From positions 2,400,001-2,464,000 of the forward strand of contig OZ252100.1 of the NCBI GenBank assembly GCA_965248435.1: DNA of 64,000 bases. The letters run 5' to 3'. Below the pieces are notes generated by a model that saw only the letters and a list, made by a program, of their open reading frames with translations, had not been told where the DNA came from and ran no database searches. The position numbers were made by a program, and so were the translations under genes. Origin of the DNA: Candidatus Latescibacterota bacterium. GTDB lineage: Bacteria; Latescibacterota; UBA2968; GCA-2709665. Shown here piece after piece: positions 6,430 through 57,350 of this stretch (the stretch's first letter is position 1; each line of letters opens with the position of its first letter).

Positions 6430-6552
6430 TCGCGAAATTCAAATCCCCCCTGCCCCCCTTTTTCAAAGGGGGGACATTGCTCTCAGTGAATTGGTTCCCA
6501 ATCAGAGAGTTGATTCTTCCCCCTTTCTCAAAGGGGGACTGAGGGGGATTTC
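6430..6552. repeat. Double-palindrome intergenic repeat, family A (CCCCCTTT-n-AAAGGGGG)
   Basis: Two hairpins with terminal IR AAATCCCCC...GGGGGATTT; homologous to 19542-19742 (inverted) and 53423-53508. Confidence 0.85.
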
Positions 6553-6607: not shown

Positions 6608-8491
6608 ATGGGCAGCATCCAAATCCGAGACAATCTCGCCACTGCCTACAGCGACGTCTATACCCCGGAAGTGATGGAGGCCCTGTCGGCACTCGCTCGA
6701 TTCAACGATGACCAGAAAGCGGTCATGGCCAAAAGAATCGAAAGAAGGGCGGAGCGCCAGAGAAACAAACAGCGCATCACCTTCCTCGATCCCGAAGAGA
6801 ACATCGAGGGGACCGACATCAACGTGGGCGACGCCAGGGCGGGCAAGTTCGTCGGCTCGGAGATTCCGCACGATCTTCAGCGACAGTGGATCCAGGGCAC
6901 AGGCCCGGCCGCGAAGCCGAACGCACCGATCGACCGAAGCATCAGAAACGTCGCTTACGCACTGCTGTCCGGCGCCGACGGCTGGATGTTCGACGGCGAA
7001 GATGCGCTCGGTCAGATCACGACGATGTCGCTCGACAACCTGAGAAACCTGAAGCTGGCTATCCAGAAGGATCCGGTCTTCCTGAAGGCTGCCGAGCAGG
7101 TCGCGAGCGAGATGAACGAATGGGCTTCAGGGTTCTTCGGTCGAGCGCTCATCGAGGACTGGGAGAAACAGCTCGATTTCACCACGAAGATCTTCCGCGC
7201 GAGGGGCCTGCATCTGGACGACCGGCACATCCGCGATTCAGACGGCGTGGCATTCTCCGCGTCGATCGCCGACATCACCCTCTACATCGTGAACAATCAC
7301 CGGCAGCTGCGCGACGCCGGGTCATCCATCGTCCTCTATCTGCCGAAGATCCAGACCGCGGAAGAGGCCGCGCTCTGGAACGACATGCTCTCGGCCCTCG
7401 AGGCCCATCTCAAGCTCCCAGAAGGCACGGTCAAAGTCTACGTCCTCGTCGAACAGCTCGAGGCGACCTTCCAGCTCATGGAAATCCGCGCGGCGCTGAG
7501 CAGGCACTTCGCCGGCTACAACACCGGGCGATGGGACTATATCAACAGCGTGGCCGACGCGATGGCGTGGGAGCAGACGTTCATCAATCCCGCGATCGAG
7601 TCCATCACGATGACCTATGGCTACATGAGGAACTACGAAGACCGGGTCCGCCGCGCCGTCAACACTGCAGACGTGAATGGTAACTTCGCGCTCTGGCAGG
7701 GCGGCATGGAGCCCAACATCCCCGTCGGGTCCAAAGAGGGCGTCGCATCCAGCATGGGAAAAGCGGTCGCGGGCGCCACACGAGAGGAGAAGGAAGGGGC
7801 CAGCGGCAAGTGGGTCGCCCACTGGAAGATGGTCCACATCGTGCGCCCCGTGTGGGAGGAAGTGGGCGAAGCCAATCAGCTCGGAAGAGAATTTCCCCCG
7901 CTCACCTACACGCAGGAAGACGCCGACGGCCTCGTGCTCCTCGAACCTGAACCCCGGACGATCCGCGGCGCGCGGAACCTCCTGAGTGTCGCACTGCAAT
8001 ACGGCAACGCATTCGGCCAGGGGCTTCAGGCGGCGGCGCTCAAGCCGGCCGACTTCTTCGGTGACGACAACGTGATGTATCTCATGGAAGACATGGCGAC
8101 CGGAGAGATTCGCCTCAGCATCCTGTGGGAGTGGCTTCACAAGGGTGGGACGCTCACGGATGACGATCCGGAGACCGGGGCGAAGTCGGGAGACGCGTTC
8201 ACGGTAGATCTGTTCCGACGCTTGCTGGCGGAGGAGTATGAGAAGCTCCTCCAGGCAAATGACAAGGATGTTCACGACGACTCAAAGGGTACCACCGTGC
8301 CCATCGCCCGGGAGATCGTGGAAACCTACGTGATGGATGAGGTGAAGGCCCCCTGGTACATCGATCTCCTGAACATCAACCTCAACAACCACGATCTGTC
8401 AATGGCCAAACAGCGTATTCGCCTCTACATGGAAGCCTTCAAGAAAGACGGCACCCGAATCACAGAGAATCTAGACTTTGTAGAAGCTTGA
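6608..8491 (+). CDS. Malate synthase
   Basis: WMFDGED, IFRARGLHL, YLPKIQ..EEAALWND, NTGRWDYI, W.AH, LMEDMATGEI motifs; SD GAAGGAGG. Confidence 0.93.
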   Translation: MGSIQIRDNLATAYSDVYTPEVMEALSALARFNDDQKAVMAKRIERRAERQRNKQRITFLDPEENIEGTDINVGDARAGKFVGSEIPHDLQRQWIQGTGPAAKPNAPIDRSIRNVAYALLSGADGWMFDGEDALGQITTMSLDNLRNLKLAIQKDPVFLKAAEQVASEMNEWASGFFGRALIEDWEKQLDFTTKIFRARGLHLDDRHIRDSDGVAFSASIADITLYIVNNHRQLRDAGSSIVLYLPKIQTAEEAALWNDMLSALEAHLKLPEGTVKVYVLVEQLEATFQLMEIRAALSRHFAGYNTGRWDYINSVADAMAWEQTFINPAIESITMTYGYMRNYEDRVRRAVNTADVNGNFALWQGGMEPNIPVGSKEGVASSMGKAVAGATREEKEGASGKWVAHWKMVHIVRPVWEEVGEANQLGREFPPLTYTQEDADGLVLLEPEPRTIRGARNLLSVALQYGNAFGQGLQAAALKPADFFGDDNVMYLMEDMATGEIRLSILWEWLHKGGTLTDDDPETGAKSGDAFTVDLFRRLLAEEYEKLLQANDKDVHDDSKGTTVPIAREIVETYVMDEVKAPWYIDLLNINLNNHDLSMAKQRIRLYMEAFKKDGTRITENLDFVEA

Positions 8492-8507: not shown

Positions 8508-10097
8508 ATGAGTATGAGCATCAAGTGCACTTCGAAAGTCCCCCGCCAGACCTTCGCGACCACACTGGAAACGCAGCAGGAGCAGTTGAAGACGGATGAG
8601 CTGATGCTGCGCTACGCGGTGTCGCGCGAACAGCACGCCGCCGATCCGTACCTGCCCGCTTACCACTTCGTCAATCCAGAAGGCCCCATGAACGACCCGA
8701 ACGGGCTCTGCCACTGGCAGGAGCGCTATCATCTCTTTTACCAGACCAAACCTCCAGAAGACCCGCGCGAGCACTGGGGCCACACGATCAGCGACGACCT
8801 GGTCCACTGGAAAGACCTCCCTCTGGCCATCCACCCCGGCATCGAAGCCGCCTGTTTCAGCGGCAGCTCGCTGGTCGAGGAAGACCGGGTCATCGCCATC
8901 TACCACGGCCTCAAGACGGGCAACATGGTCGCCGTGTCCAGCGACCCGCTCCTCCTCAACTGGGAGAAGATCCCCGGCAACCCCGTCATCCCGATCGTCG
9001 AGGTGGACGAGACGCAGCGCCCCTACCGTGTCTTCGACCCCTGCATCTGGAAAGAAGATGACGGCTACTACGCGCTGTCAGGTACCTACCTGGATGGGGC
9101 GATCCGCCACGACTGTCGGATGGCCCAGCACCTGTTCTTTTCGCAGGATCTGAAGTCCTGGACCTATACGGGAGAGTTCGTCGAAGGTGATGTCTTCACC
9201 GGGCGGGGTGAGGACGGAGCGGTTCCCTATTTCTGGCCAATCGGCGACAAGCACATCCTGTTGTTCGCCAGCCACACACGCGGGGCGCAGTATCTGCTCG
9301 GCGACTACGAAAAGGCGCGTCAGAAATTCAAACCGTTCGCGCACGGCCGGTTCAACTTTGGATGCATCCATTCCGGCGCCGTCCACGCCCCCTGCGGCAC
9401 CCCCGATGGCGAGGGCGGCGTCTACCTTATCTGCAACATCAACGACGCCAGACCGACCGAGGGCTGGAACCACCTGATGTCTCTCGTGCGTCTGCTGACC
9501 CTGCGCGAGGACAACACACTGGGCATCGAACCTGTCCGAACTGTCGAAGCACTCCGATCCGAGCACGAACGGCTCGGTGAGACCTCCCTGCCCGCAAACC
9601 GGGAGGTCGTGCTCGAGGGTGTCCAGGGGAACACGATGGAGCTCGCCGTTGAGGTCGATCCCCGTAGCGCGCGAGAGATCTGCCTCCACGTTCTGCGTTC
9701 ACCCGGCGGAGAGGAGACGACCGAGGTCAAATTCTTCCGGCGCGGCTACATGAGGACGCATAAAGAGGATGGGAAACACCATCAGGACGCGCTCGTGATC
9801 GACACGTCCCGATCGTCGCTGCTGCCCGATGTGAAAGCACGTCCTCCCGAAATCGCGCCGTTCGAGCTCCCGTCGAATGAAACACTCAAGCTTCGAATCT
9901 TCCTGGACCGAAGCGTCGTCGAGGTCTTCGCCAACGGCACGCAATGTCTCGCCCTGCGGGTCTATCCCGAGCGCAGGGACAGCGTGGGTGTGGCCATCCG
10001 CGCTCAGGGTGGAGACGCGGTCCTGCACTCGCTCGATGCGTGGCAGATGAATAGCATTTACAAGCAGACGGCGGACGACGGACGGCAGACCGCCTAA
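8508..10097 (+). CDS. Glycoside hydrolase family 32-like protein
   Basis: MNDPNG, YHLFYQ, WGH..S.DLVHW, FSGS, FDP motifs; C-terminal beta-sandwich LRIFLDRSVVEVF. Confidence 0.9.
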   Translation: MSMSIKCTSKVPRQTFATTLETQQEQLKTDELMLRYAVSREQHAADPYLPAYHFVNPEGPMNDPNGLCHWQERYHLFYQTKPPEDPREHWGHTISDDLVHWKDLPLAIHPGIEAACFSGSSLVEEDRVIAIYHGLKTGNMVAVSSDPLLLNWEKIPGNPVIPIVEVDETQRPYRVFDPCIWKEDDGYYALSGTYLDGAIRHDCRMAQHLFFSQDLKSWTYTGEFVEGDVFTGRGEDGAVPYFWPIGDKHILLFASHTRGAQYLLGDYEKARQKFKPFAHGRFNFGCIHSGAVHAPCGTPDGEGGVYLICNINDARPTEGWNHLMSLVRLLTLREDNTLGIEPVRTVEALRSEHERLGETSLPANREVVLEGVQGNTMELAVEVDPRSAREICLHVLRSPGGEETTEVKFFRRGYMRTHKEDGKHHQDALVIDTSRSSLLPDVKARPPEIAPFELPSNETLKLRIFLDRSVVEVFANGTQCLALRVYPERRDSVGVAIRAQGGDAVLHSLDAWQMNSIYKQTADDGRQTA

Positions 10098-10187
10098 AGG
10101 CGGACGACCGACGACGGACCGCAGACCGCAGGATGAATAGTGTGATATTTCACGTTTCTAGCCGTCTGTGGTCCGTGGTCTGCGGTC
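10064..10187. repeat. Inverted heptamer array (GACCGCA/GACGACG units)
   Basis: Forward 7-mer run, AT-rich spacer, then complementary CCGTCTG/TGGTCCG/CGGTC run; similar arrays at 12287-12370 and 35413-35497. Confidence 0.8.
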
Positions 10188-12286: not shown

Positions 12287-12370
12287 CGACGACGGACGAC
12301 AGACCGCAGACCGCGAGATCAAAGGCGTAATTATTCTGGTTTGGCGGTCCCCGGTCCGCCGTCTGTGGTC
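12287..12370. repeat. Inverted heptamer array
   Basis: GACGACGGACGACAGACCGCAGACCGC...GCGGTCCCCGGTCCGCCGTCTGTGGTC. Confidence 0.75.
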
Positions 12371-17239: not shown

Positions 17240-17358
17240 GACCCCTCCCTCGTTCCCTCCCCTAAAGGGGAGGGAAGACAGAAGCGGTGCTCTTGGATCT
17301 ACCAGAGGAAATCATCTCCCCCCTCCCTTTAGGGAAGGGGGGCCGGGGGGGTTAGGTC
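17240..17358. repeat. Double-palindrome repeat, family B (CCCTCCCC-n-GGGGAGGG)
   Basis: Terminal IR GACC...GGTC; related copy at 38350-38516. Confidence 0.8.
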
Positions 17359-17742: not shown

Positions 17743-17786
17743 CCTTACTCGTCGCTTTGTTTATTGCCGCCTGTTTCTTCTTGATT

Positions 17787-17870
17787 CTGGAGTATTGCAG
17801 TACTGGAGTAGTGGAGTATTGTAAAATCTGCTTTTCCATTACTCCAACACTCCATTACTCCATTCCCCAT
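17787..17870. repeat. Inverted octamer array (GGAGTATT / ACTCCA)
   Basis: Nearly identical arrangement at 57121-57200. Confidence 0.8.
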
Positions 17871-17956: not shown

Positions 17957-19495
17957 ATGCGTTTCATCTTGACCTGTGACGGCAGCTGCGTTGCGTTCAG
18001 GGATCCGCTGACCGTCGAACACCTGCAGAAGCAGGTGGACGTGCTTGTAGACACACAGGTGGACACTCTGTGCTACAACATCGGGTTACCCGGGGCGTAT
18101 GAATATGCCACGAAAGTGGGCACGCGGTATGGCCACGGGATGGAAAAGATGCCCGACGTCTCCTCCTACCGTGAAAGGCAGAATCTCGAAGCATTCTTTC
18201 AGCAGGGCATCGATCCGCTCCGGGTCCTGCTCGACCGCGGAATGGAAAAGGGTCTCAAGGTCTTTCCTGACATACGGATCTACGACTGTCAGTGCGGAAT
18301 CGATTTCGATCCCATGAATCGCGATCATCCGGACTGGCGGATCGGAGAACACGCCCGCTACGGTCCCGCATCGCTCATCTACGGGACCCGAGTCCCCGAC
18401 GCATACAAGAACCCCAACTACACCTGGCAGCTGGACTTCGCACATCCCGAAGTTCGACAGCGAACAATCGACATCGCCGAGGAACTGCTCACCTATCAGA
18501 TCGAAGGCCTGCAGCTGGACTTCCAGCGTCGACCCAACTACTTCAAGCCGGACGAGGCGGTCGATAACCGACACCTGATGACAGACATGGTGCGCGCGAT
18601 TCGTGCCAGCGTTCGAAAAGCCGAACAGGAGCAGGGCAGACCGGTGGAACTGCTGTGTCGGGTATGGGCGAACCTGGAGGACTGCTGGCATCTGGGTATG
18701 GATGTCAGGACGTGGGTCGAAGAGGGACTGATCGATCTCTTGATCCCGACCCATCACCTCTGCTTCGCGATCGACGCGCCCCTCGAGGAGTTTGTTGAGC
18801 TGACCAGGGACACACCGGTCAAGGTCTTGATGAACTACCTCCCGATCTTCGATTGGCCCAGGACGACCAGCGTCAGCCATCGCCCCGACCAGAAGCCTTC
18901 GTTCGCGGGCGTGCAGCTTCGGTCCCTGGATCTGGAATACGTACTGACCGGAGAGATGTGGCACGCCGGCGCCCAGATGGCCTTCGCCAAAGGCGCCGAC
19001 GGGCTGTCTATCTTCAACCTGAACCCGGCAGATTACGATGAGGGCTGGGACCTGAGCTTCCTGAGCGAGATCGCAGACCGGGACGTCGTGGCCCGGCACG
19101 ACAAGCTCTATCCCTTCATCACGGGCGAGTCGGCGAATCGATCCCGGAGCCTCAGTCGCAATGAGCCGGTAACCTATAACCTCTTCGTGGCTGAGGATCC
19201 GGCCGCTGTCGCGAAAATGACCCTCGAGGTACATATCGAAGAGCTTACGCGAGAGGATCGGCTCGAGTTTACCCTGGACGGCAAACCACTCCCGATGGAA
19301 ATTCGAACCCTTCCGGATGCATCAGGCGGCATGCACCTCCCCGGGCATCGTCCTCACCACTTCTTCGAGTGCGAGCTGACGCCCGAGTTGGTAGAGCTGG
19401 GCCCGTGCGAATTGGCGATCGGAGTGGTAGAACGAAACCCGGAGATACTTTCGCGGCTTACAGTGCTGGGTGTGAACATCAGGGTCAATCCCTGA
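17957..19495 (+). CDS. Putative glycoside hydrolase (GHL10/DUF187-like TIM barrel) with C-terminal beta domain
   Basis: HPDWRI, LDFAHPEVR, EGLQLDFQR, GMDVRTWVEEGLID, GADGLSIFN. Confidence 0.7.
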   Translation: MRFILTCDGSCVAFRDPLTVEHLQKQVDVLVDTQVDTLCYNIGLPGAYEYATKVGTRYGHGMEKMPDVSSYRERQNLEAFFQQGIDPLRVLLDRGMEKGLKVFPDIRIYDCQCGIDFDPMNRDHPDWRIGEHARYGPASLIYGTRVPDAYKNPNYTWQLDFAHPEVRQRTIDIAEELLTYQIEGLQLDFQRRPNYFKPDEAVDNRHLMTDMVRAIRASVRKAEQEQGRPVELLCRVWANLEDCWHLGMDVRTWVEEGLIDLLIPTHHLCFAIDAPLEEFVELTRDTPVKVLMNYLPIFDWPRTTSVSHRPDQKPSFAGVQLRSLDLEYVLTGEMWHAGAQMAFAKGADGLSIFNLNPADYDEGWDLSFLSEIADRDVVARHDKLYPFITGESANRSRSLSRNEPVTYNLFVAEDPAAVAKMTLEVHIEELTREDRLEFTLDGKPLPMEIRTLPDASGGMHLPGHRPHHFFECELTPELVELGPCELAIGVVERNPEILSRLTVLGVNIRVNP

Positions 19496-19559
19496 TGCCC
19501 GGTTCGCGATTTATGAGCGAATGATGTCCGTTCACATTGTGAAAATCCCCCTCAATCCC

Positions 19560-19627
19560 TCCCTCGACTCGCATGCTCGCTCACCTCGATACGGCCCTCC
19601 GGGCCTACTCGGTGCAGGCGGGACAGG
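19560..19627. mobile_element. 31-bp mini-element interrupted by a nested 37-bp mini-element (19582-19618)
   Basis: TCCCTCGACTCGCATGCTCGCT[CACCTCGATACGGCCCTCCGGGCCTACTCGGTGCAGG]CGGGACAGG. Confidence 0.72.
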
Positions 19628-19680
19628 CCTTTTCCAAAGGGGGAAGATTGCTCTTCTTTAGAGATTATAGATTCCTCCCC

Positions 19681-19703
19681 TCCCTCGGCAAGCTCGGGAC
19701 ATG
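19681..19703. mobile_element. 23-bp mini-element
   Basis: TCCCTCGGCAAGCTCGGGACATG interrupts CCCCCTTT-CGT-AAAGGGGG; similar ends to the 31-bp element. Confidence 0.7.
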
Positions 19704-19775
19704 CTTTCGTAAAGGGGGCAGGGGGGATTTGAATTTCGCGATGGCAAAACGACGGATTCAGGAGACTGACGGATT

Positions 19776-20681
19776 ATGACAACTGAGAAAGACGCAAAGC
19801 CCGTCGTCTACATCGACGGCGAGTTTTACGGGGAAAGCGACGCGAAGATCTCCGTCTTCGACCACGCCCTCCTCTACGGAGATGCCATCTACGAAACCTG
19901 CTGCGCCTGGAACGGCGCAATCTTCAAGCTGGACAGGCATATCGACAGGCTGTTCGAATCGGCCCACGCGGTGAAACTCCAGGTCCCCCTTTCCAAGGCC
20001 GAGTTGAAAGAGGTCGCCGTGGAAACCGTCCGACGCAGTAATCTCAAGAATGCCTACGTCAAGATCATCGCCACGCGAGGCGTAGGCGAACAGCCGACCA
20101 TAAGCCCCTACAACACGACACCCAGCATCATCGTCTTCGCCTGGCCCTACCTCAGCCTCGTAGCCGGCGATGTGGATCTGAAGGGGATGCGCGTCAAAGT
20201 CGCCTCCTGGCGACGCATTCCGGACATCTGCCTGCCATCGAAGGTGAAGAGCATCAACTACCTGAATCACGTTCTCATGCGCATGGAGGCGAACGAGTCC
20301 GGCTACGACGACGCGCTGGAACTCGGGACGGACGGTGATGTCACCGAAGCCCCGGGCTACAACGTCTTCGCCGTGAAACGCAGCGCCATCCAAACTCCGT
20401 CGAACAACATCCTCGTCGGCATTACCCGCGAGACCGTCCTCGAACTCGCGGCAGAAGCGGGAATCTCCGTGATCGAGGGCCAGCTCACCGTCTTCGATTT
20501 CTACAACGCCGATGAGGTGTTCTTCTCAAGCTCCGCTGGCGGCATCTTCCCGGTCAGCGAAATCGACGGGCGCGTGATCGGGAATGACGGGAAGCCGGGG
20601 CCTGTTACCGTCCGAATTCGCGACGGATATCAGGCGCTGCTCGAAAGCCGCGCCAAGAGCACACCTGTCTACCCGGCCTGA
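19776..20681 (+). CDS. ilvE: Branched-chain/class IV PLP aminotransferase
   Basis: LLYGDAIYE, HIDRLFESA, KSINYL, EAPGYNVF, LVGITR, ADEVF. Confidence 0.9.
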   Translation: MTTEKDAKPVVYIDGEFYGESDAKISVFDHALLYGDAIYETCCAWNGAIFKLDRHIDRLFESAHAVKLQVPLSKAELKEVAVETVRRSNLKNAYVKIIATRGVGEQPTISPYNTTPSIIVFAWPYLSLVAGDVDLKGMRVKVASWRRIPDICLPSKVKSINYLNHVLMRMEANESGYDDALELGTDGDVTEAPGYNVFAVKRSAIQTPSNNILVGITRETVLELAAEAGISVIEGQLTVFDFYNADEVFFSSSAGGIFPVSEIDGRVIGNDGKPGPVTVRIRDGYQALLESRAKSTPVYPA

Positions 20682-29569: not shown

Positions 29570-29611
29570 AACTTGGTGATTGAACGTGTGATGTGATGAA
29601 TTGTGCTTCAG

Positions 29612-29641
29612 TCCGCAATCCAAAATTCGCAATCCGCAATT
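29612..29641. repeat. AATCCGC heptamer run
   Basis: TCCGCAATCCAAAATTCGCAATCCGCAAT; also at 17361, 30503-30533 and inverted at 52799-52830. Confidence 0.75.
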
Positions 29642-30470: not shown

Positions 30471-30562
30471 CCGAAAGATGAAGGCCTGCGGTGAATGCCT
30501 TCCAATCCGCAATCCCAATTCCGCAATCCGCAATTGGATGACGATTCACGAACGACGGCTCC

Positions 30563-35412: not shown

Positions 35413-35497
35413 GACCGCAGACCACGGACCGCGGACCGCTCAAAACCAAAGAGATGGCTTTATTCATCTTGCCGTCCGCTGTCTGCCGTCTGCGGTC
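35413..35497. repeat. Inverted heptamer array
   Basis: GACCGCAGACCACGGACCGCGGACCGC...GCCGTCCGCTGTCTGCCGTCTGCGGTC. Confidence 0.75.
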
Positions 35498-37637: not shown

Positions 37638-37901
37638 ATGCCTGATCCGATTACACTAAGAATCGCCCAGCGGGGCGTCCTCACGCTTCCGAAATCGTTG
37701 AGAGAGGCCCACAACCTGAAGCCTGGGGATACGCTCACCCTCCTCGACCTTGGTGATCTGCTTGTCCTCAGTCCGCGCCCCTCGGAGGTGGATCGACTCG
37801 CAGACCGTGTCCAGGAATCTCTGACCGAAAAGGGTGAGTCGTTGGAGACCGTGCTCAAGTCGCTCAGGCAGGTGCGCGAAGGCGATGCCCCCGAAGCCTA
37901 G
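37638..37901 (+). CDS. AbrB/MazE-type antitoxin
   Basis: RGVLTLPKSLRE...LKPGD. Confidence 0.87.
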   Translation: MPDPITLRIAQRGVLTLPKSLREAHNLKPGDTLTLLDLGDLLVLSPRPSEVDRLADRVQESLTEKGESLETVLKSLRQVREGDAPEA

Positions 37902-38379
37902 AGTCTTCCTCGACACGAGCGCCCTCTTCGCGGGAATCTGGTCATCGGAAGGCGGAGGCAGGCAGCTCCTTCACCTGGGTGAATGGGACGCCGTTCAGAT
38001 TGTCGTGAGCTCTGACGTGACGCGGGAATTGGAGGATGTGATCCGACGTAAAGCCGCCGATCTGCTCCCCACGCTTGCTCTCCTGCTCCACCAGGTGAAC
38101 GTCGAGATCTGCGCGCCTCCTTCCCCTGATGATATCCAGGAATTCAACACCCTCGTTGGCCACCTGGGCGACGCGAAGATCGCGGCCGCCGCACGCGCTT
38201 CCCGCGCTGGATTCCTCGTGACTCTGGATCGAGCCCACCTCCTGAATCGGTCGGAGGTAGCAGAAGCCGCGGGATGTCTCATCGGAACACCCGGCGACTG
38301 CCTGTCCTGGCTGACCCGGCTTCTTCGAAGCGGGGGAAGTGGCCTTGAAGACCTACCCCCCCTGACCCCCCCTCCCTGA
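37885..38379 (+). CDS. PIN-domain toxin
   Basis: VFLDTSALF, E, GDAKI, LVTLD; stop codon lies inside the downstream repeat. Confidence 0.85.
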   Translation: MPPKPRVFLDTSALFAGIWSSEGGGRQLLHLGEWDAVQIVVSSDVTRELEDVIRRKAADLLPTLALLLHQVNVEICAPPSPDDIQEFNTLVGHLGDAKIAAAARASRAGFLVTLDRAHLLNRSEVAEAAGCLIGTPGDCLSWLTRLLRSGGSGLEDLPPLTPPP

Positions 38380-38516
38380 AGGGCAGGGGGGAACGGAAAA
38401 CAACTGATTGCGATGCATAGTATGTGTCTGCCCGAGGCAAATCACGATTTTTGTTTTGTGGAAAGGCATTACTGTTACCTCCCCTTTCCTTTAGGAGAGG
38501 GGCCGGGGGTGAGGTC
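38350..38516. repeat. Family B double-palindrome repeat
   Basis: GACCTACCCCC...GGGGGTGAGGTC with two C/G hairpins. Confidence 0.8.
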
Positions 38517-42922: not shown

Positions 42923-45900
42923 ATGGATAAGCCACTCATCGACATTTTGTGGGTAACGGTTTGTACGAGCCTTGTATTCCTCATGCAGGGTGGATTCCTG
43001 TGCCTGGAAACCGGACTCACGCGCAGCAAGAACAACATCAACGTGGCCATAAAAAACCTGACCGACCTGGGCATCTCCATCGTCCTGTTCTGGGCACTCG
43101 GTTATGGACTCATGTTCGGTGATTCAAAGGGTGGGTGGATCGGGTCAACCGCATTCATACCGGACCTCGGCCGTGGAGACACCTGGTCTTCCGTCTTCCT
43201 CCTCTTCGCGGCCATGTTCTGTGGCACAGCGGTAACCATCGTTTCCGGGGCCGTCGCGGAGCGCCTCCGGTTTGCCGGTTACCTGATGATCGCAGCCCTG
43301 GCGTCAAGCCTGGTCTATCCGGTCTTCGGCCATTGGGTCTGGAACGGCGTCGACTCAGGAACGGCAACGGGATGGCTTGGCGCGAGAGGGTTCGTCGATT
43401 TCGCCGGCACCTCGGTCGTTCACAGCGTGGGAGGTTGGATCTCTCTCGCCATCCTGGTCATAATCGGTCCCCGCAGCGGCCGTTTCCCCAAAGACGGGCC
43501 GCCCCAGAAGATTCACGGAGCCAACCTGCCGATCGCGACGTTGGGGGTGCTCCTGTTATGGCTCGGCTGGTTCGGTTTCAACGGCGGCAGCACGCTCGCG
43601 ATGAACGATCAGGTCCCGGGAATCATTGCCAATACGGTGTTTTCCGGCGCCGCTGGACTGGTCGCCGGAGTCGCGATAGGCTGGGTCGTGAGGGGGCGGC
43701 CGGACGTCGACCTCGTGATCAACGGTTCTCTGGCGGGCCTGGTCGCGATTACTGCGAGCGCTCACGCAGTGACCACGCTATCTGCCGTGGTCATCGGTGC
43801 CCTTGGGGGGGTCGTGATGGTCGGCGTCGACCACTTGCTGGTTCGCTTCCGGATCGATGACGCCGTCGGCGCAATCCCCGTCCACCTGGGGGCCGGAATC
43901 TGGGGCACCCTGGCTGTGGCCATATTTGGCCAGCCCGATCTTCTTGCTACAGGCCTTCCTTTCTGGGAACAGCTCCAGATACAGATCCTGGGCATCGTGG
44001 TCTGTGCCGCCTGGACCTTCGGCCTGGTCTACATCGTGTTCTATCTGATCAATCGCCTGTTCCAACTCCGCGTGAGCTCTGAGGATGAACATATCGGACT
44101 CAACGTCTCCGAACACGGCGCAACGACCGACCTCCTCGACCTGTTCACGGTGATGGACAGTCAGTCGAAGACGGGAGACTTGAACCTGCGTGCCCCGGTC
44201 GAACCGTTCACGGAAGTCGGCCAGATTGCCGAACGCTACAATCAGGTCATGGAAGCGTTGGAGAGGGTCACTGCCAGGACAGAGGCCATCGTGAGAAGTG
44301 CCATGGATGGCGTGGTGACATTCGCGAAAGATTCGCTTTCCGTCTTCACGCTCAATCCTGCGGCTGAGGCCATCTTCGGATACCGGGAGGCCCAGATCTC
44401 TCATCAGCCATTGACGAAGCTCTTCGAGTCAACCGATCAAAGTTCAGATGTCGCTGGATCTGAGCAGATCGCGTCAACGATCTCCGAGATGGATACAGGC
44501 GAGACCCATCACGAATACACGGGCAGGCGTTCAGATGGCTCGACGTTTCCGATGGAGGTCACCGTGACAGAGGCGGAAACGGCCCGGGACCAGTTTTACG
44601 TAGGGACATTTCGGGATATTACAGATCGAAAACGGGCTGAAGTCGAGTTACAACGGGCAAAAGAGTTGGCCGAAGCCGCGAACACCGCCAAGAGTCTCTT
44701 TCTTGCGAACATGAGTCACGAAATCCGGACGCCCATGAACGCAATCCTGGGCTATGCCCAGATCCTTAGAGACGATCCGGAGCTGCCTAAACAGCAGCGG
44801 CAGGCAGTTGAAACCATCAAGACGAGCGAGGAGCATCTCCTGGGACTGATCAACGATGTTCTGGACATTTCCAAGATCGAGGCTGGACGCCAGGTACTCA
44901 ACGCGGCCGATTTTGATCTACGGGACTTTCTGCAGGGCCTCGGAGCGATGTTCGAGGTACGCTGCTGGGAAAAAGACCTCCGCTGGGTTCTGGCAGCAGA
45001 CGTCCCAGATGGTCTTGTGAACGGCGACGGGAACAAGCTTGGGCAGGTACTGATCAATCTGCTCGGAAATGCGGTAAAGTTCACCCAACAGGGGGAAGTT
45101 TTACTGCGGGTGGAAGCACGCGACGACGACCACTACTACTTCCAGGTCTCTGACACAGGGCCGGGAATTGCTGCAGAGCAGCAAGCCGCCGTTTTCGAAC
45201 CCTTTCAACAAGATGGAACTTCGCACGAAGGCACGGGACTGGGGTTGGCCATCTCCCGCCAGCTCGTCGAGCTGATGGATGGGCAGCTGACGTTGAAGTC
45301 CGCACTCGGAGAAGGTTCCCGATTCTCCTTCGTCCTGCGACTTCCGCGTGGACAGTCCCCGCACAATGAAGAGGCGAGTCTGAATTTGTCCAGGGTTACA
45401 CACCTGGCCGACGGCTTTTCCGCTCGCGCGCTTGTTGTGGATGACGTCGAAAGCAGCCGAGATATTCTTTCAAAGGTGCTGACCAGAATCGGTGTCGAAG
45501 TGGAAACGGTCGAAACCGGGATCCACGCGATCGAGCGATTTCGACAACGTCCACCCGACATCGTCTTTATGGACATCCGCATGCCGGAAATGGATGGCAC
45601 CGAAACGATGCGGCGTCTGGTCGCGGAACACGGTCCCGACGCGATGGCCATCGTGGCAGTAACCGCTTCGGTCTTCGAACACGAGCGCCAACACTATTTG
45701 GAGGCAGGGTTTGACGACTTCATCGGCAAGCCGATCCGTGTCGAACAGATCTATGCCTGCCTGTCGGAGCTGCTCGGCGTCGAGTTCACCTACGGTCCCG
45801 GTCCGGAAAAGCCGGATGAGTCGCCCCTCGACCTGAGCCAGGTCGTCCTGCCCGAAGCGCTTTACGACGCTATCAAACAAGGAGCAGAAAGTCACAGCGT

Positions 45901-46042
45901 GACCGAACTCAGAAAATGTATTGACCAACTCGAAACCCTGGATGCACCAGGACCGAAACTGGCCGCCCGTCTGCGCCAGTTGATCCAGAAATTCGACATA
46001 GCCAGCATCGCCACCCTGATGAATGAGGTTGGGTATGAATAG
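42923..46042 (+). CDS. Ammonium transporter-PAS-histidine kinase-receiver fusion
   Basis: Amt: MQGGFLCLE.G, SGAVAER, DFAG.SVVH, GWFGFNGGS, DDAVGAIPVH; PAS/PAC; H-box SHEIRTP, N/G boxes; REC FMD, KP. Confidence 0.93.
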   Translation: MDKPLIDILWVTVCTSLVFLMQGGFLCLETGLTRSKNNINVAIKNLTDLGISIVLFWALGYGLMFGDSKGGWIGSTAFIPDLGRGDTWSSVFLLFAAMFCGTAVTIVSGAVAERLRFAGYLMIAALASSLVYPVFGHWVWNGVDSGTATGWLGARGFVDFAGTSVVHSVGGWISLAILVIIGPRSGRFPKDGPPQKIHGANLPIATLGVLLLWLGWFGFNGGSTLAMNDQVPGIIANTVFSGAAGLVAGVAIGWVVRGRPDVDLVINGSLAGLVAITASAHAVTTLSAVVIGALGGVVMVGVDHLLVRFRIDDAVGAIPVHLGAGIWGTLAVAIFGQPDLLATGLPFWEQLQIQILGIVVCAAWTFGLVYIVFYLINRLFQLRVSSEDEHIGLNVSEHGATTDLLDLFTVMDSQSKTGDLNLRAPVEPFTEVGQIAERYNQVMEALERVTARTEAIVRSAMDGVVTFAKDSLSVFTLNPAAEAIFGYREAQISHQPLTKLFESTDQSSDVAGSEQIASTISEMDTGETHHEYTGRRSDGSTFPMEVTVTEAETARDQFYVGTFRDITDRKRAEVELQRAKELAEAANTAKSLFLANMSHEIRTPMNAILGYAQILRDDPELPKQQRQAVETIKTSEEHLLGLINDVLDISKIEAGRQVLNAADFDLRDFLQGLGAMFEVRCWEKDLRWVLAADVPDGLVNGDGNKLGQVLINLLGNAVKFTQQGEVLLRVEARDDDHYYFQVSDTGPGIAAEQQAAVFEPFQQDGTSHEGTGLGLAISRQLVELMDGQLTLKSALGEGSRFSFVLRLPRGQSPHNEEASLNLSRVTHLADGFSARALVVDDVESSRDILSKVLTRIGVEVETVETGIHAIERFRQRPPDIVFMDIRMPEMDGTETMRRLVAEHGPDAMAIVAVTASVFEHERQHYLEAGFDDFIGKPIRVEQIYACLSELLGVEFTYGPGPEKPDESPLDLSQVVLPEALYDAIKQGAESHSVTELRKCIDQLETLDAPGPKLAARLRQLIQKFDIASIATLMNEVGYE

Positions 46043-47183
46043 GTCCCAGATCGACCTGGCCGGCGGCAAAGTGCTTGTCGTCGACGACGTACCCGCAAAC
46101 ATCGATGTGCTTCGGGACGCTCTCGAAGAATGCGGCGCCAACGTGTTCGCGGCCACGAGCGGTGAGGTCGCCCTGAAGGTCGTAGAACGGTCTCTTCCGG
46201 ATCTGATCCTGCTGGACGTGATGATGCCCGGCCTGGATGGATTCGAAACGTGTGATCGTCTCAAGGCGAGGGCCGGGACGCAAGACATTCCGGTGATCTT
46301 TCTCACCGCCAGAGGGGAAATGGAAGACATCGTCGAGGGATTCGAGCGGGGCGCGGTAGACTATGTGACAAAGCCCTTCAACACTACCGAATTGCTTGCC
46401 AGAGTCAACACCCATCTGACAATCTACCGCCTTCAGATGGCGCTGGAAGAGCACGCGGACAATATCGCCCGGATGTACCGAGAACAGGAGTCCTTTTTGC
46501 GGCACGAACTCAGAAATCGGCTCGGATGCGTGATGGGCTACACAGATATGGTCTTGATGGAGGAGAGTCTGAACGAGCGTTTGCGAGGCTGGATGACGTC
46601 GGTTCAGGAAGCCACAGTGAATACATCTGAACTGATCGACTCGATGCAGAGCCTTCAGGAGTTCGAGACCGGCGAGTTCGAGCTGAGGACAAACCCGCTC
46701 GAGCTGGACCCGCTCGTAAAGCAGGTGGTTTTGGACCTGGAGACGATGCTCGGAGACCGCGTGAAGATCGAGTACGAGAATGGCGTGGCGGATTCAGCTA
46801 TACAGGGAAACGCCAATCTCCTGAAGGGCGTTTTCCAAAACCTGATAAAGAATGCGGTCGAACACGTCGCCGAGCTAGGTGACGCCCAGCAGCGTATCGT
46901 CAGGGTCAATCTGGCGACAGAAAACAGAAAAGCGGTCATCAAAGTCAACAACCAGGGAGAGCCGGTCCCGCCTGAGAAATTGGCATTGTTCTTCGAGAAA
47001 TTCAACTCCACCCGACGCAGAAAAGGCGGTACCGGGCTGGGAACGACGTACGCCTACCTCGTGACCAAGGCGCACGGAGGCCAAATTTCGGTCGCGTCTG
47101 ACAGGAGCCAAGGCACGACGGTCACGGTTGAACTCCCGATGAACGCCACCTCTAGCGCAAGTCCAGATGTCATAGATCCATGA
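46035..47183 (+). CDS. Receiver-histidine kinase (REC-HisKA-HATPase)
   Basis: VDD, LLDVMMP, KPF; RHELRN; NLIKNA; GGTGLG. Confidence 0.9.
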   Translation: MNRSQIDLAGGKVLVVDDVPANIDVLRDALEECGANVFAATSGEVALKVVERSLPDLILLDVMMPGLDGFETCDRLKARAGTQDIPVIFLTARGEMEDIVEGFERGAVDYVTKPFNTTELLARVNTHLTIYRLQMALEEHADNIARMYREQESFLRHELRNRLGCVMGYTDMVLMEESLNERLRGWMTSVQEATVNTSELIDSMQSLQEFETGEFELRTNPLELDPLVKQVVLDLETMLGDRVKIEYENGVADSAIQGNANLLKGVFQNLIKNAVEHVAELGDAQQRIVRVNLATENRKAVIKVNNQGEPVPPEKLALFFEKFNSTRRRKGGTGLGTTYAYLVTKAHGGQISVASDRSQGTTVTVELPMNATSSASPDVIDP

Positions 47184-47728
47184 AATCCCAGGTGCACAAG
47201 AAAATACTCATCGGTCTCCTCTGCCTGAGCTCGCTCGCGGTTCCTGCGGGCGCAGAAGACGTCGATCTGCTGACCAACTTCAAGGCGGTCTTCGTTTACA
47301 ACTTCCTTGACTATGTACACTGGCCCGAGGGAGATGGGACTGAGGTGATCAAGATTGGCATTCTAGGCGACAGCCCTCTGGAAGAGCCGCTTCGAAAAAT
47401 CGCTGAGAGAAAGAGCACCGAGAAGAGAAAAATCCGAGTCGCGGTGAGGAAGGACGTTGAAGACTTGGGAGACTGCCACGTCCTGTTCATCCCCTCAGGC
47501 CAGGTCGGACGGCTAAAGGAGATCAAGGCATATCTGATCGACCAGAGCGTCCTCACGGTCACCGACACTCCCGGACTCGCAAACCGAGGCGTAGCTATCA
47601 ACTTTATCCTGGTCAAAGGCAAGCTCAAATTCGAGATCAATCAGCAGGCGCTCCAGCGTGCCGGCCTGCGCGCGAGTGCCCAGCTTCTCAAACTTGCCAT
47701 TCTCGTCGAAGAAGAGGAGACGGGATAG
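47180..47728 (+). CDS. yfiR: YfiR/HmsC family periplasmic protein
   Basis: KAVFVYNFLDYVHWP, CHVLFI, INF, FEIN..A..RAGL..SAQLLKLA. Confidence 0.9.
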   Translation: MKSQVHKKILIGLLCLSSLAVPAGAEDVDLLTNFKAVFVYNFLDYVHWPEGDGTEVIKIGILGDSPLEEPLRKIAERKSTEKRKIRVAVRKDVEDLGDCHVLFIPSGQVGRLKEIKAYLIDQSVLTVTDTPGLANRGVAINFILVKGKLKFEINQQALQRAGLRASAQLLKLAILVEEEETG

Positions 47729-47751
47729 ATTCGAGCCCGGTCGGATAAAAA

Positions 47752-49899
<2,148 letters not shown>

Positions 49900-49904
49900 G
49901 GGCC

Positions 49905-51890
<1,986 letters not shown>

Positions 51891-52103: not shown

Positions 52104-52391
52104 CTAAGCGGCGTAGAGTCTTTTGACTTTCAGGTTGCCAGCATTCTGCTCCGCGACCCAGAGGTCATACTGGACCTGTTGGTTCAGCCAGCTTTCTGCG
52201 GAGGTACCGAACGCTTTTGCCAATCGAATAGCCATTTCCGGGCTGATTCCTGCTCGCCCATTGAGAATCGCCGAAAGTGTCTTGCGGCTCACTCCAAGGC
52301 CCTCCGCAGCCTCGGTTACAGTAATCTCCAGGGGCTCTATGCAGAGCTCTCGCAACACTTCCCCTGGATGAGGCGGATTGTGCATCTTCAT
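52104..52391 (-). CDS. higA: HigA family antitoxin
   Basis: [32 protein letters not shown]. Confidence 0.95.
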
Positions 52392-52669
52392 CAGTGATAG
52401 TCCTCCAGGTCTACGTCCTGCGCATCTGGACCTCGGAATCTGAAAGTGATTCTCCAGTTTCCTGAAACACGCACAGACCACGCTCCTCTTCTTTTTCCCC
52501 CCAGTTGGTGGAGGAAGAGGCCGGGCAGATCCATATCTTGTGGAGCCGTCGATGCATTCAGGCGACCGAGAACAATGCGGATACGGCCGGCTTGTTGTGC
52601 TTGAATTCCACGTGTGGTTCCTGTCCTGAAGAAACGCTCCAGGCCCCTGTGCTTAAAACTCTGAATCAC
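52391..52669 (-). CDS. higB: HigB (RelE-like) toxin
   Basis: [29 protein letters not shown]; toxin-first order. Confidence 0.95.
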
Positions 52670-52704: not shown

Positions 52705-52873
52705 GTCAGTGTTGGAGCTGGCTCTAAGCATCCAGTCGGACGCTGCCGGCTAAAGGTCAGATTCACCGCGTCGCGCTCACGAATTCAAGAGGCCGCACAA
52801 TTGCGGATTGAGGATTTGGGATTGCGGAATGAAAGGCAAAAGGGCGTGTTTTCGGAATCGGAAGATAAATGTG

Positions 52874-52964: not shown

Positions 52965-53010
52965 CAGTCCCCTCCTTGGAGGGGTGCCCCGAAGGGGCGG
53001 GGTGGGTGCA
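52965..53010. repeat. C/G palindrome variant (family C)
   Basis: CCCCTCC-TT-GGAGGGG followed by GCCCC-GAA-GGGGC-GGGGTGG. Confidence 0.6.
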
Positions 53011-53077: not shown

Positions 53078-53422
53078 AAAAGAAGGGCGCCGCTCAGGCG
53101 CCGCGGGGGCTTGGGCCGCGGCACCTTACCCTCAGTGCGAAGAACGGTGCGGCAAAAGGACTGAACTCCTCCCCTCACCTGATGCCCACCGCGGGACCCG
53201 CCCCCACTCCGCGAATTTCCATTCGCCCGCACCCCAACCCCCGCACCTCACCCGGTCCCACAGAGGGCCCCAACCCCCTAGGAGGAGAGAGCCACTGGTT
53301 GCAAGGAAGTCGCACACCGCGGCCCTGACATCTTCAATCGGTGCATTTCGTGAGTTCTACGGCACCTGCCTGCGAATTCTGCACATAGACCTTGTTACCT
53401 TAGCCCCAACATTTGACGAAGA

Positions 53423-53508
53423 TCCTTTACAAAGGGGGGAGATTAGAGAGTACCCATCAGGGAATAGATTCTTCCCCCTTTGGAAAAGGGGGATTGAGGG
53501 GGATTTTT
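53423..53508. repeat. Family A palindrome abutting the DUF559 gene
   Basis: CTTCCCCCTTTGGAAAAGGGGGATTGAGGGGGATTTT ends 3 nt before the TTG start. Confidence 0.85.
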
Positions 53509-53510
53509 CC

Positions 53511-53888
53511 TTGTTGCGATACAACTACAATTTGAAGAAGAACGCAAGACAGTTGCGATCTAACATGACCGAAGCCGAGAAATTGCTCTGGTATCGACTA
53601 CGTAGAAGGCAAGTATTAGGTGTTCAATTCTACAGACAGAAACCGATCGGCAACTATATCGTTGACTTCTATGCCCCGAAACCGAAGCTCGTTATAGAGG
53701 TCGACGGATCCGATCATTTTGAAAAAGACCACGCGGAGAAAGATGCAAGGCGGGAGGGGTACTTGAGGGCACAAAACCTAGCTGTATTACGGTTCACGAA
53801 TCTGGAGGTTCTGCAGCAGACCGATGCAGTGATGAAAACAATTTTTCACAAAGTTCTTCAAACAATGGAAACAATCGTCCCTCTCTAG
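53511..53888 (+). CDS. DUF559 (Vsr-like PD-(D/E)xK) endonuclease domain protein
   Basis: ARQLRSNMTEAEKLLW, FYRQKPIGNYIVDF, IEVDGSDH, VLRFTN. Confidence 0.92.
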   Translation: MLRYNYNLKKNARQLRSNMTEAEKLLWYRLRRRQVLGVQFYRQKPIGNYIVDFYAPKPKLVIEVDGSDHFEKDHAEKDARREGYLRAQNLAVLRFTNLEVLQQTDAVMKTIFHKVLQTMETIVPL

Positions 53889-53896
53889 ATTCTACA

Positions 53897-54943
53897 TCAT
53901 GCCCCTTTTCGCACCAAGCTGAACGTCGCGCTCTCGGTGTTGGAATCATCTGTTTCCACCTCGAAACTGCCGCCGTGCGCTTTGGCAACCAAAAACGTAT
54001 ACCCGCCCTTGGGTTCTGGAAGTTCCGACGCCGTTTTCTTGTAACTCACCTTAACGAGAATGCGACCACCCGCTTCCAGGAGACGGACCCGCACGGCACG
54101 GTCGGCGGTTTCCGTATGGGTGGAGGCCTCCTCCACGGCACGCTTCACGATCCCGTGGAAGACCCCCGTCAGCAGATCAGAATCCGCAGGCACCATCGGG
54201 TCGGCGAGTTCGTTCTGATAGAGGATGTTCGCCAGCGTCCCGAAGGCGAGCTCGAGATCGGCGATCACGCGGCGGACGAGCTGGTCCAGATGGACCGATT
54301 CCTTGCTGACGTGGTAATCTCCCTTGCCGAAGCTCATGAGACCCTTGAGGGTCCGCACGAGGTCTGCGAGCCCCTGTACGCCTTCGGCCACGCGCTCGAG
54401 ACTGGGGCTTGTCGCATCTCCCAGTTCTGTTCGCAGCTGTTCCATGGATCGGACGAGGGGTTCGATCCGATTCGTCAGCTCTCGATTCACGAAGAAGTCC
54501 TGCTCCTGTTTCAGCCGCTCGATCTCCCTGAGTCTCTGCTCCACCTCCATCTGCAGTCTGCGACGTGACACGTGTGCTTCAACGCGGACAAACAGCTCCG
54601 CCGCGTTGAACGGCTTCGTCACGTAGTCCACCACGCCCATCTCGAATCCTTTCACCACGTCCTCCGCCTCGGACTTGGCGGTCAGGAAAATCACCGGGAT
54701 GTCTGCCGTGTCGGGATTCGCCTTTATGCGTTTGCAGGTTTCGAATCCATCCATTTCCGGCATCATGATGTCTAACAGGATGAGGTCGGGTCGGACGCGC
54801 TCGAGGACTTCGAGCGCCTGTTTTCCGCTCTGGGCGATGTGGAGCATGTAGTCCGCCTGTTCCAGGATCGACCCGAGAACCTGGATGTTCTCGATCGTAT
54901 CGTCGACTACCAGAATCCGCGTGGCTCCATCCTTCTCTTCCAT
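53897..54943 (-). CDS. Receiver + degenerate histidine kinase (pseudokinase)
   Basis: Intact REC (VDD, LLDIMMP, KPF); kinase-like tail lacks H-box His, N-box Asn and G boxes. Confidence 0.8.
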   Translation of the reverse strand: MEEKDGATRILVVDDTIENIQVLGSILEQADYMLHIAQSGKQALEVLERVRPDLILLDIMMPEMDGFETCKRIKANPDTADIPVIFLTAKSEAEDVVKGFEMGVVDYVTKPFNAAELFVRVEAHVSRRRLQMEVEQRLREIERLKQEQDFFVNRELTNRIEPLVRSMEQLRTELGDATSPSLERVAEGVQGLADLVRTLKGLMSFGKGDYHVSKESVHLDQLVRRVIADLELAFGTLANILYQNELADPMVPADSDLLTGVFHGIVKRAVEEASTHTETADRAVRVRLLEAGGRILVKVSYKKTASELPEPKGGYTFLVAKAHGGSFEVETDDSNTESATFSLVRKGA

Positions 54944-57076: not shown

Positions 57077-57120
57077 GCATCACGGTCGCCTGCTACTCCT
57101 AGCTTTTTACCTTCCCGATT

Positions 57121-57350
57121 CTGGAGTATTGGAGTACTGGAGTGGTGGAGTATTGCAAAACCTCCCTTTCCATTACTCCATTCCCCCATTACTCCAACAC
57201 TCACGCATTCTCCTCGTTCCCCAATACTCCAACACTCCATTTCCCCAACACTAGCGTTCTTAGTCTTCATTCCCCCATTACTCCAACACTCACGCATTTT
57301 CCTCGTTCCCCATTACTCCAACACTCCATTCCCCCAGCACTCGCGTTTCT
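57121..57350. repeat. Octamer inverted array plus 89-bp-period tandem duplication
   Basis: GGAGTATT/ACTCCA units; copies start at 57179 and 57268. Confidence 0.8.

Follow-up and report, generated by a model that had tools for sequence, protein, structure and literature searches.

BoxC, PIT and intrastrand triplex motif repeats came to light in the early 1990s. Thousands of them are spread over genomes, where they mark loci that are unstable, and to our knowledge neither an enzyme nor a mechanism of spreading has been assigned to them. The DUF559 proteins form a very large family that includes Escherichia coli YcjD and a solved gonococcal protein. In this study, we examine a 64-kb stretch of Candidatus Latescibacterota DNA (hereafter the window, within which all positions are numbered) that carries a DUF559 gene, predicted to encode a Vsr-like PD-(D/E)xK nuclease, directly behind a repeat unit. 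Genes of this clade nearly always stand between two inverted units or between whole doublets of units, and gene-less singlets and doublets are dispersed across the same genomes. We consider it probable that the gene and its repeats form a pairing like that of RAYTs and REPINs, with a Vsr-like nuclease that acts on the repeats of its own family and either spreads or maintains them.

The E. coli form of the triplex motif reads CCCTCNCCC N3-6 GGGNGAGGG N3 GGGNGAGGG and is present in 23 copies in strain MG1655 (Holder et al. 2015, PMC4666352). Its single strand adopts a triplex in vitro, the motifs mark loci that vary between strains, and cyanobacteria and Neisseria hold many related G/C-rich motifs (PMC4666352). 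A 1992 paper on envM (fabI), cited there, is credited with the first description of BoxC. The authors state that transposases, integrases or mobile elements were never seen near the motifs, and the main text of the paper mentions none of ycjD, fabI, sapF or "endonuclease" (PMC4666352). Our own search of the literature, with subscription journals and supplements lying outside it, returned no paper tying DUF559 or YcjD to these repeats.

Results

The DUF559 gene and the unit in front of it

The DUF559 gene occupies 53511..53888 on the plus strand, begins with TTG and encodes 125 amino acids. The Pfam match of this open reading frame (ORF 53511-53888) to PF04480 reaches 121.7 bits, the curated cut-off being 20.6 (E=1.6e-35), and among its profile matches in the PDB are 3hrl, a DUF559 protein of solved structure (E=1.1e-28), and 3r3p, the I-Bth0305I catalytic domain (E=8.7e-4); matches to enterotoxin B chain profiles (E 0.08-1) were dismissed as noise. 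An AlphaFold2 model of the protein (pLDDT 86.8) has 3hrl and 3r3p as its top Foldseek matches, followed by the nuclease domains of PvuRts1I and AbaSI, the R2 retrotransposon endonuclease and Vsr. The modelled protein shares its fold with Vsr and with the homing endonuclease I-Bth0305I, and nuclease activity is predicted. Residues D52, E63, D65 and H69 are invariant in 44 sequences of DUF559 relatives, and by analogy we take them to be catalytic. The relatives begin with ML.YN at the position aligned with the TTG, which makes the TTG start credible. Pfam found in the window protein only DUF559 and related restriction-endonuclease families and nothing of an HUH Y1 transposase. DUF559 is not an HUH enzyme and hence not a member of the RAYT family.

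Directly 5' of the gene, at 53474..53506 on the plus strand, lies one repeat unit (U->, the forward unit; U<- denotes its inverted copy). Such units are 33-35 nt long. Each is built of a C-rich arm, the G-rich arm complementary to it and, as the third block, another G-rich stretch that is the mirror of the G-arm; for the U type these blocks read CCCCC(C)TTT / AAAGGGGG(G) / GGGGG(G)ATTT. In the window unit the hairpin CCCCCTTTGGAAAAGGGGG (53474-53492) consists of CCCCCTTT and AAAGGGGG around the loop GGA, and after the linker ATT comes the tail GAGGGGGATTT (53496-53506). The pattern CCCCCTTT-N2-6-AAAGGGGG occurs three times in the window and in none of 100 window shuffles, the other two occurrences forming the doublet at 6441-6551 described below; the tail GAGGGGGATTT has three exact occurrences in the window, with a shuffle expectation of 1.77 that was computed with one mismatch allowed. 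Four nucleotides separate the end of the tail (...ATTT) from the TTG at 53511, one more than in the sequence-only reading that preceded this work. That reading had also placed GAGGGGG at Shine-Dalgarno distance. The last G does lie 8 nt from the TTG, but such a role would be local to the window locus, the distance from tail to start ranging from 1 to 102 nt among other loci.

Because the tail is a mirror of the G-arm (CCCCCTTT / AAAGGGGG / GGGGGATTT, the loop and the linker that precedes the tail each being 3 nt long), the unit is a candidate intrastrand triplex motif. Under the purine-motif rules the window unit gives five G.G:C triads, one A.A:T and two T.A:T. Judged by their blocks, the window units are of the build of the BoxC/PIT/intrastrand triplex motif repeats. 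The C-run and the G-run of the tail are of equal length in 90 of 131 units.

The stretch 5' of the gene aligns with the right two-thirds of a doublet. A remnant of the left half is at 53431..53473 on the plus strand; it consists of a AAAGGGGGG arm (53431-53439) and a spacer, whereas the left C-arm and the AAATCCCCC end are decayed (alignment A1, direct repeat D14). At its 3' end the gene appears from its sequence to hold a decayed inverted unit as well, GCCCCTTTTCG at 53868..53911 (strand not assigned), a weak and putative feature that overlaps the stop of the convergent response-regulator gene. In a tblastn alignment the window ORF end, ETIVPL*, corresponds to the E*IP of relatives (GAA TAA ATC CCC). 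The last codons of the response-regulator gene (...RKGA*, 53897-53911) are read from the apparent decayed G-arm, so the repeat remnant may have been absorbed into a coding end.

A sigma-70 promoter scan of 53300-53950 found no site, so a promoter role of the unit is not supported at this copy; the only terminator-like match in that interval lies inside the ORF on the opposite strand. Rfam at its gathering threshold gave no match in the whole window. Folded as single-stranded DNA, in computations that allow Watson-Crick pairs only, the upstream unit, alone or with the remnant, does no better than shuffled sequence (z about -1.1).

Gene and units in related loci

We compared the window gene with its best 80 of 494 confirmed matches from a scan of a species-level genome collection, with about 10 kb covered around each relative in each genome; the loci compared carry L-numbers. 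These relatives are 53-65% identical at the protein level and span at least 11 named phyla, two archaeal bins among them; Pseudomonadota, Thermodesulfobacteriota, Omnitrophota, Chloroflexota, Binatota, Nitrospirota, Nitrospinota, Planctomycetota and NC10 are all represented. A U-> unit matching the strict pattern was found within 120 nt upstream in 67 of 80 relatives, mostly 1-29 nt from the start. At the 3' end a U<- unit, that is, a reverse-complement unit with its start at -40 to +200 nt relative to where the protein match stops, was found in 65, and 57 of the 80 have both. Under loose criteria the counts rise to 74 upstream and 78 downstream. The background is 35 units in 590,209 bases, both strands counted, away from the gene, or 0.06 per kb, so that about 0.004 would be expected per upstream window. 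The predicted enrichment of the repeat beside DUF559 genes is thus borne out, with 67 of 80 observed against about 0.004 expected per gene.

Counted from the stop codon, the 3' units had come to 25 of 80, a figure superseded by the 65 of 80 above; it was too low because many ORFs read through the unit. The stop codon lies inside the unit (TAAATCCCC) in 11 loci. Predicted homologues in other genomes have N-terminal extensions, for instance PPF.KGG.GGI, and C-terminal ones, for instance NPPNPPF.KGG, which are translated unit, on both sides of the gene. In seven syntenic Rhodocyclales loci the unit is conserved and the neighbouring intergenic bases vary. Clustering of neighbour genes over the 80 loci revealed no recurrent neighbour beside DUF559 outside the syntenic groups. 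Loci L021 and L018 have inserts of 17-21 nt between hairpin and tail in the units on both sides of the gene, and in L021 both units share the same insert, which suggests copying or conversion between flanking units.

Gene-less copies of the units formed 32 clusters in the loci and the window. They occur as solo units, singlets, U<-spacer-U-> doublets and U->-short spacer-U<- pairs, and the gene-less U->-spacer-U<- arrangements (L037 at 7284, L042 at 141, L052 at 5467 and L008 at 9973) have the layout that the gene-bearing form would show with the gene removed. Conversely, L035 and the Sphingomonas locus described below read doublet-gene-doublet.

The window itself holds one gene-bearing and two gene-less copies of the nuclease-plus-repeat system. 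The first gene-less doublet, at 6441..6551 on the plus strand, consists of U<- (6441-6473), a partly palindromic 44-nt spacer and U-> (6518-6551), and reads AAATCCCCCC-ctg-hairpin, spacer, hairpin-actg-AGGGGGATTT. It lies between an ORF ending at 6402 and one starting at 6608, and as single-stranded DNA it folds at -31 kcal/mol (z=-5.1); only the full doublet beats its shuffles. The 11 nt at 6430-6440, TCGCGAAATTC, are common to both gene-less doublets. The second, at 19543..19741 in the opposite orientation (minus strand), lies between an ORF ending at 19495 and one starting at 19776 and carries inserts of 68 nt and 23 nt within the G-arms of its two hairpins. Both are homologous to the stretch upstream of the gene (alignment A1; direct repeat D14, 85% over 54 nt; inverted repeat I4, 97% over 31 nt), and the gene-less double-hairpin copies that had been proposed at 6430 and 19542 are real. 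The inserts of the second doublet (19557-19632 and 19681-19705) begin with C(A/C)TGTCCCG and end with CGAGGGA in the orientation of A1, and resemble a third kind of very small element inserting into the repeat.

Distant DUF559 clades and E. coli

A tblastn search of a plasmid collection, which includes some mislabelled chromosomes, gave 45 records, all below 60% identity and none from the clade of the window gene. Nine loci were read among them: Pseudanabaena, PCC 7002, Synechocystis B12, Deinococcus, Azospirillum, Sphingomonas, Sinorhizobium, E. coli ycjD and Neisseria gonorrhoeae. In all nine, three-block units with a sequence of their own lie no more than about 200 nt from the gene. Pseudanabaena and PCC 7002 have CCCCC-agaatt-GGGGG plus ctaGGGGGGC doublets on both sides of the gene, the Sphingomonas gene stands between two doublets, and L025 has a second DUF559 copy, 48% identical, with a further variant of the unit on either side. 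In line with the expectation that repeat type would co-vary with DUF559 clade, the units are clade-specific in all nine sampled loci and at this second L025 copy. A search of the same collection with the U singlet (46 nt) gave no match, though the BLAST low-complexity filter may have masked it, and the negative therefore has no bearing on co-occurrence. In the N. gonorrhoeae locus (L090, the 3hrl homologue) a direct repeat of about 90 nt flanks DUF559 (130-225 and 735-850), and each copy ends in a CCTCTCTCCC-TGT-GGGAGAGAG-CT-AGAGAGAGGG unit.

In E. coli, ycjD adjoins fabI and the units lie between the two genes. Among 5,426 complete E. coli genomes the 59-nt unit adjacent to ycjD was found at 1-32 places per genome (median 18), with 20 in the MG1655 record, and ycjD, at a coverage of at least 80%, was found in 3,377. 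We then compared 60 evenly spaced genomes: the 37 with ycjD hold 11-27 unit places (median 19, including the ycjD locus itself), and the 23 that lack it hold 1-14 (median 5). This difference in copy number goes the way the hypothesis predicts. For strain 55989 Holder et al. list 29 motifs, for IHE3034 a single one (PMC4666352), and phylogroups A, B1 and C are reported to have ycjD at the sapF-fabI site, where B2 and others have eefRABCD (PMC12817139). In the K-12 locus (L089, 1800-1925, minus strand) the last 60 nt or so of ycjD and its hairpin unit are partly duplicated just downstream.

Boundaries and signs of mobility

Nucleotide similarity between otherwise unrelated loci starts and stops at the units; L026 and L032, for example, are 98.3% identical over 483 bp. 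In one sub-clade a 20-nt terminal inverted repeat, GGGCATAAGCGCTAACTTAA, encloses the unit-gene-unit block. It has 20 occurrences in 11 loci, all around DUF559, and none elsewhere in the loci or in the window. Three such elements from one metagenome-assembled genome (MAG), L060, L067 and L070, are 97.6-98.0% identical over about 545 bp with different flanks. Each is bounded by the terminal repeat, has DUF559 as its sole ORF and sits in the loop of a different hairpin, CCCTCTCCC/GGGAGAGGG(+GGGTGAGGG), with a perfect 5-nt duplication of the host hairpin loop (TTGAC, GCAAC and CTTGC). The same loop duplication, TGGAT, is present in L066, from an NC10 bacterium. The window copy has neither the terminal repeat nor a target duplication. 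By eye, and without quantification, the flanks of plain U-gene-U copies tend to be inverted, as expected for the halves of a doublet spacer.

Several genomes carry more than one copy. Second DUF559 copies are present in L025, L055 and L078, one MAG holds three and a Binatia MAG holds two; L064 and L080 are pseudogenes. The two copies in L078 (4250-5560) lie 230 nt apart in a tandem segmental duplication that includes the end of a flanking gene. In a quick protein tree the sequences cluster partly by taxon and phyla are mixed; with 9 of 76 branches starred, so few are resolved that the tree cannot prove horizontal transfer. In a table of PMC9881135 "DUF559 domain-containing protein" is 14-fold enriched among predicted targets of programmed inversion, which fits genes bracketed by inverted repeats.

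Other repeats and neighbouring genes in the window

The two gene-less doublets and the three elements of other families described below are intergenic and all lie between co-directional ORFs. The window contains seven perfect C-arm/G-arm hairpins, against 0-4 in 20 first-order Markov simulations. Three further elements, at 17240, 38350 and 52965, had been taken for relatives of the unit at the gene. Their build is indeed the same (C-rich arm, loop, G-rich arm and then another block rich in G or C), but their sequence differs, and they belong to other families and are not copies. A doublet of a second family is at 17241..17356 (plus strand, intergenic), ACCCCTCCCTCG + TTCCCTCCCC-TAA-AGGGGAGGGAA ... 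CCCCCCTCCCTTTAGGGAAGGGGGG + GGGGGGGTTAGG. A solo unit of a further variant, at 38341..38385 on the plus strand, has a C-rich block and an imperfect hairpin, CCCCCCCTCCC-TGAA-GGGCAGGGGGG, and overlaps the end of ORF 37834-38379. Another variant, at 52969..53008 on the plus strand, comprises CCCCTCC-TT-GGAGGGG, GCCCC-GAA-GGGGC and the tail GGGGTGGGTG.

Other dispersed repeats are also present. Runs of a ATTGCGGATT-like heptamer or decamer occur at 29607-29641, 30496-30536 and 52798-52838 (I2, I3), one copy being about 170 nt upstream of the 52969 unit. Word repeats of the CTCCATTACTCCAACACTCC type follow two different genes (17777-17862 and 57111-57347), with a tandem duplication at 57176-57347 (D9, D10), and a similar word string is found 3' of the element in L004/L007. 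Short intergenic repeats of the GACGACGGACCGCAGACCGC type are at 10074-10132, 12288-12317 and 35420-35439 (D11, D12, D15).

The neighbourhood of the DUF559 gene consists of ordinary chromosomal genes, the response-regulator gene being convergent on its 3' end. About 840 nt upstream, at 52104-52669 on the minus strand, is a type II toxin-antitoxin pair of a HigB-like toxin (PF05015, E=7.5e-17) and a helix-turn-helix antitoxin (PF01381). Three tandem paralogous hybrid histidine kinase/response regulator genes occupy 42923-51890 (D2-D4, D6).

Discussion

The gene and the unit are associated at both gene ends, in a fixed orientation and with a clade-specific repeat sequence, and together they form a discrete element. 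In the mechanism that we propose, DUF559 would cut at its own unit after recognising it, either in duplex form or extruded as a hairpin, cruciform or triplex. Units and gene would then be spread and homogenised when the break is repaired with another unit-bearing locus as the template, or when an excised element is joined, in roles that would parallel those of RAYTs and REPINs. Cuts could fall at both stem-loop junctions of an extruded cruciform, which whole-loop duplication fits. In lineages with a single site (Rhodocyclales, E. coli ycjD) the protein may serve as a resident maintenance or processing enzyme. The sequence-only reading had named DUF559 as the cognate mobilising or processing enzyme of a REP/RAYT-like system. 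The enrichment, the co-variation with clade and the layout, with its inverted flanking units and doublets and its dispersed gene-less copies, agree with that proposal; the enzyme is of another kind than the HUH enzyme of RAYTs, and mobilising or processing is a role that we infer.

Several points weigh against a nuclease that acts on and spreads its repeats. Action of DUF559 on the units is deduced from sequence comparison, and a hydrolytic PD-(D/E)xK nuclease alone cannot join DNA. The 80 relatives are not independent, as they include about seven syntenic Rhodocyclales loci, six Competibacteraceae loci and one near-identical pair. The nine distant loci were read without matched control regions, and the argument that units are rare there draws on low copy numbers (published, and about 20 per E. 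coli genome). The difference in E. coli is confounded by phylogroup, and since it follows phylogroups it counts as few independent events; genomes that lack ycjD keep up to 14 copies. Both terminal repeats are found in only 9 of 80 loci and a clean 5-nt duplication in only four of these nine: L004/L007 and L005 have no duplication, L030 has at best an offset 4-mer, and in L064 the upstream end differs. For plain U-gene-U copies, inspection by eye found no consistent target duplication. Finally, the window copy, seen here in a view of 64 kb, has lost its 3' unit, and only its 5' side is intact.

Three other explanations assign the gene or the units a different part. DUF559 might be a passenger, the units and 20-nt terminal repeats being MITE-like ends (miniature inverted-repeat transposable elements) moved in trans by a transposase encoded elsewhere, and the nuclease having a different role, for example in addiction or in a restriction-like activity that favours persistence of the element. 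Insertion sequences that insert in REP loops are known (IS1397), a terminal inverted repeat together with target duplication of 5 bp is the hallmark of DDE transposition, for which the element encodes no enzyme, and strand transfer is impossible for a hydrolytic nuclease. Nevertheless, no transposase recurs near the 80 loci within the 10 kb or so covered per genome, the 20-nt repeat is found around DUF559 only, and the pairing of gene and unit recurs in distant clades with different units, a pattern for which one and the same passenger would have had to be captured repeatedly; we regard this explanation as unlikely. DUF559 could instead be a host repair or processing nuclease that resolves repeat hairpins or triplexes at replication forks without spreading them, its place among the repeats being due to joint inheritance or to local accumulation of repeats. 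Vsr, of the same fold, is a repair nuclease, the gene keeps to one syntenic site in Rhodocyclales and in E. coli, and triplex-motif repeats block polymerases in vitro and mark unstable loci (PMC4666352). Such a role would leave unexplained why inverted units bracket the gene at a fixed distance in 57 of 80 loci and why the unit contains the stop codon in 11, and would account neither for the multi-copy, 98%-identical elements with loop duplications nor for the spread across phyla; we think it improbable.

It is quite improbable, in our judgement, that the units do no more than regulate the DUF559 gene in cis (as promoter, operator, Shine-Dalgarno sequence or terminator, or through mRNA-end pairing), with the dispersed copies as unrelated by-products. 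The G-run at 8 nt from the start codon of the window gene would suit such a function, as would the hairpin loop, which is often TTGAAA, and the capacity of the 5' tail GGGGGGATTT to pair with the 3'-end AAATCCCCCC. However, the promoter scan of the window copy was negative, the distance from tail to start varies over 1-102 nt, gene-less copies are numerous, and work cited in PMC4666352 describes PIT and BoxC as without promoter or terminator activity. A pairing of the REPIN/RAYT kind, with a Vsr-like nuclease acting on its repeats, remains the reading that we prefer.

A broader possibility, about which we are more doubtful than hopeful, is that DUF559 proteins are the founding enzymes of an unrecognised class of nuclease-only mobile or self-maintaining elements. 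Each clade would recognise and cut its own triplex unit, and would in this way have given rise to, and still sustain, the BoxC, PIT and triplex-motif families of bacteria and archaea, including through YcjD the 20 or so BoxC copies of K-12; the instability reported at such sites would be a further consequence. If the pairing of DUF559 and BoxC is true, it would offer a testable function for both orphans in a model organism. It would also supply a second and mechanistically different example of a long-lived genomic replicator of the REPIN-RAYT type, and a nuclease that reads DNA structure, hairpin or triplex, rather than plain sequence.

Among known repeats, the BoxC/PIT/TMECO families share with the units described here the C-block, G-block and mirror G-block, an intergenic and dispersed distribution and palindromic pairs. 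The E. coli unit next to ycjD fits CCCTCNCCC...GGGNGAGGG...GGGNGAGGG, with about 20 copies in MG1655, whereas the window unit is of a C5-6TTT type and fails the TMECO consensus. Among known nucleases, Vsr is of the same superfamily and fold (1vsr, 1cw0), but the similarity is weak (Foldseek E about 0.2-0.5), DUF559 has no adjacent cytosine methyltransferase and vsr has no counterpart of the flanking repeats. I-Bth0305I (3r3p, Vsr-like "EDxHD") shares the catalytic fold (Foldseek E=1.5e-4, TM 0.65-0.82) and is likewise a selfish nuclease gene. It is, however, intron-encoded and targets a host gene, in contrast to DUF559, which is free-standing between units with no intron or intein. Like MITEs and small insertion sequences, some of the elements have a 20-nt terminal inverted repeat (nine loci) and duplicate the 5-nt loop of a target hairpin (four loci), but no DDE or other known transposase is encoded, DUF559 is the sole ORF, and the window copy lacks the terminal repeat.

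The closest likeness is in the arrangement of REPINs and RAYTs. In both, a small enzyme gene is flanked by inverted units or doublets, singlets and inverted doublets are dispersed in extragenic DNA, and persistence at one site may be partly vertical, here in the syntenic groups. The DUF559 unit differs in its three blocks, a hairpin with a mirror tail, and lacks a GTAG/CGTC tag. The U-type unit hardly changes from phylum to phylum, and several copies of the gene are present in some genomes. The enzymes differ as well, RAYT being an HUH Y1 transposase and DUF559 a Vsr-like PD-(D/E)xK hydrolase.

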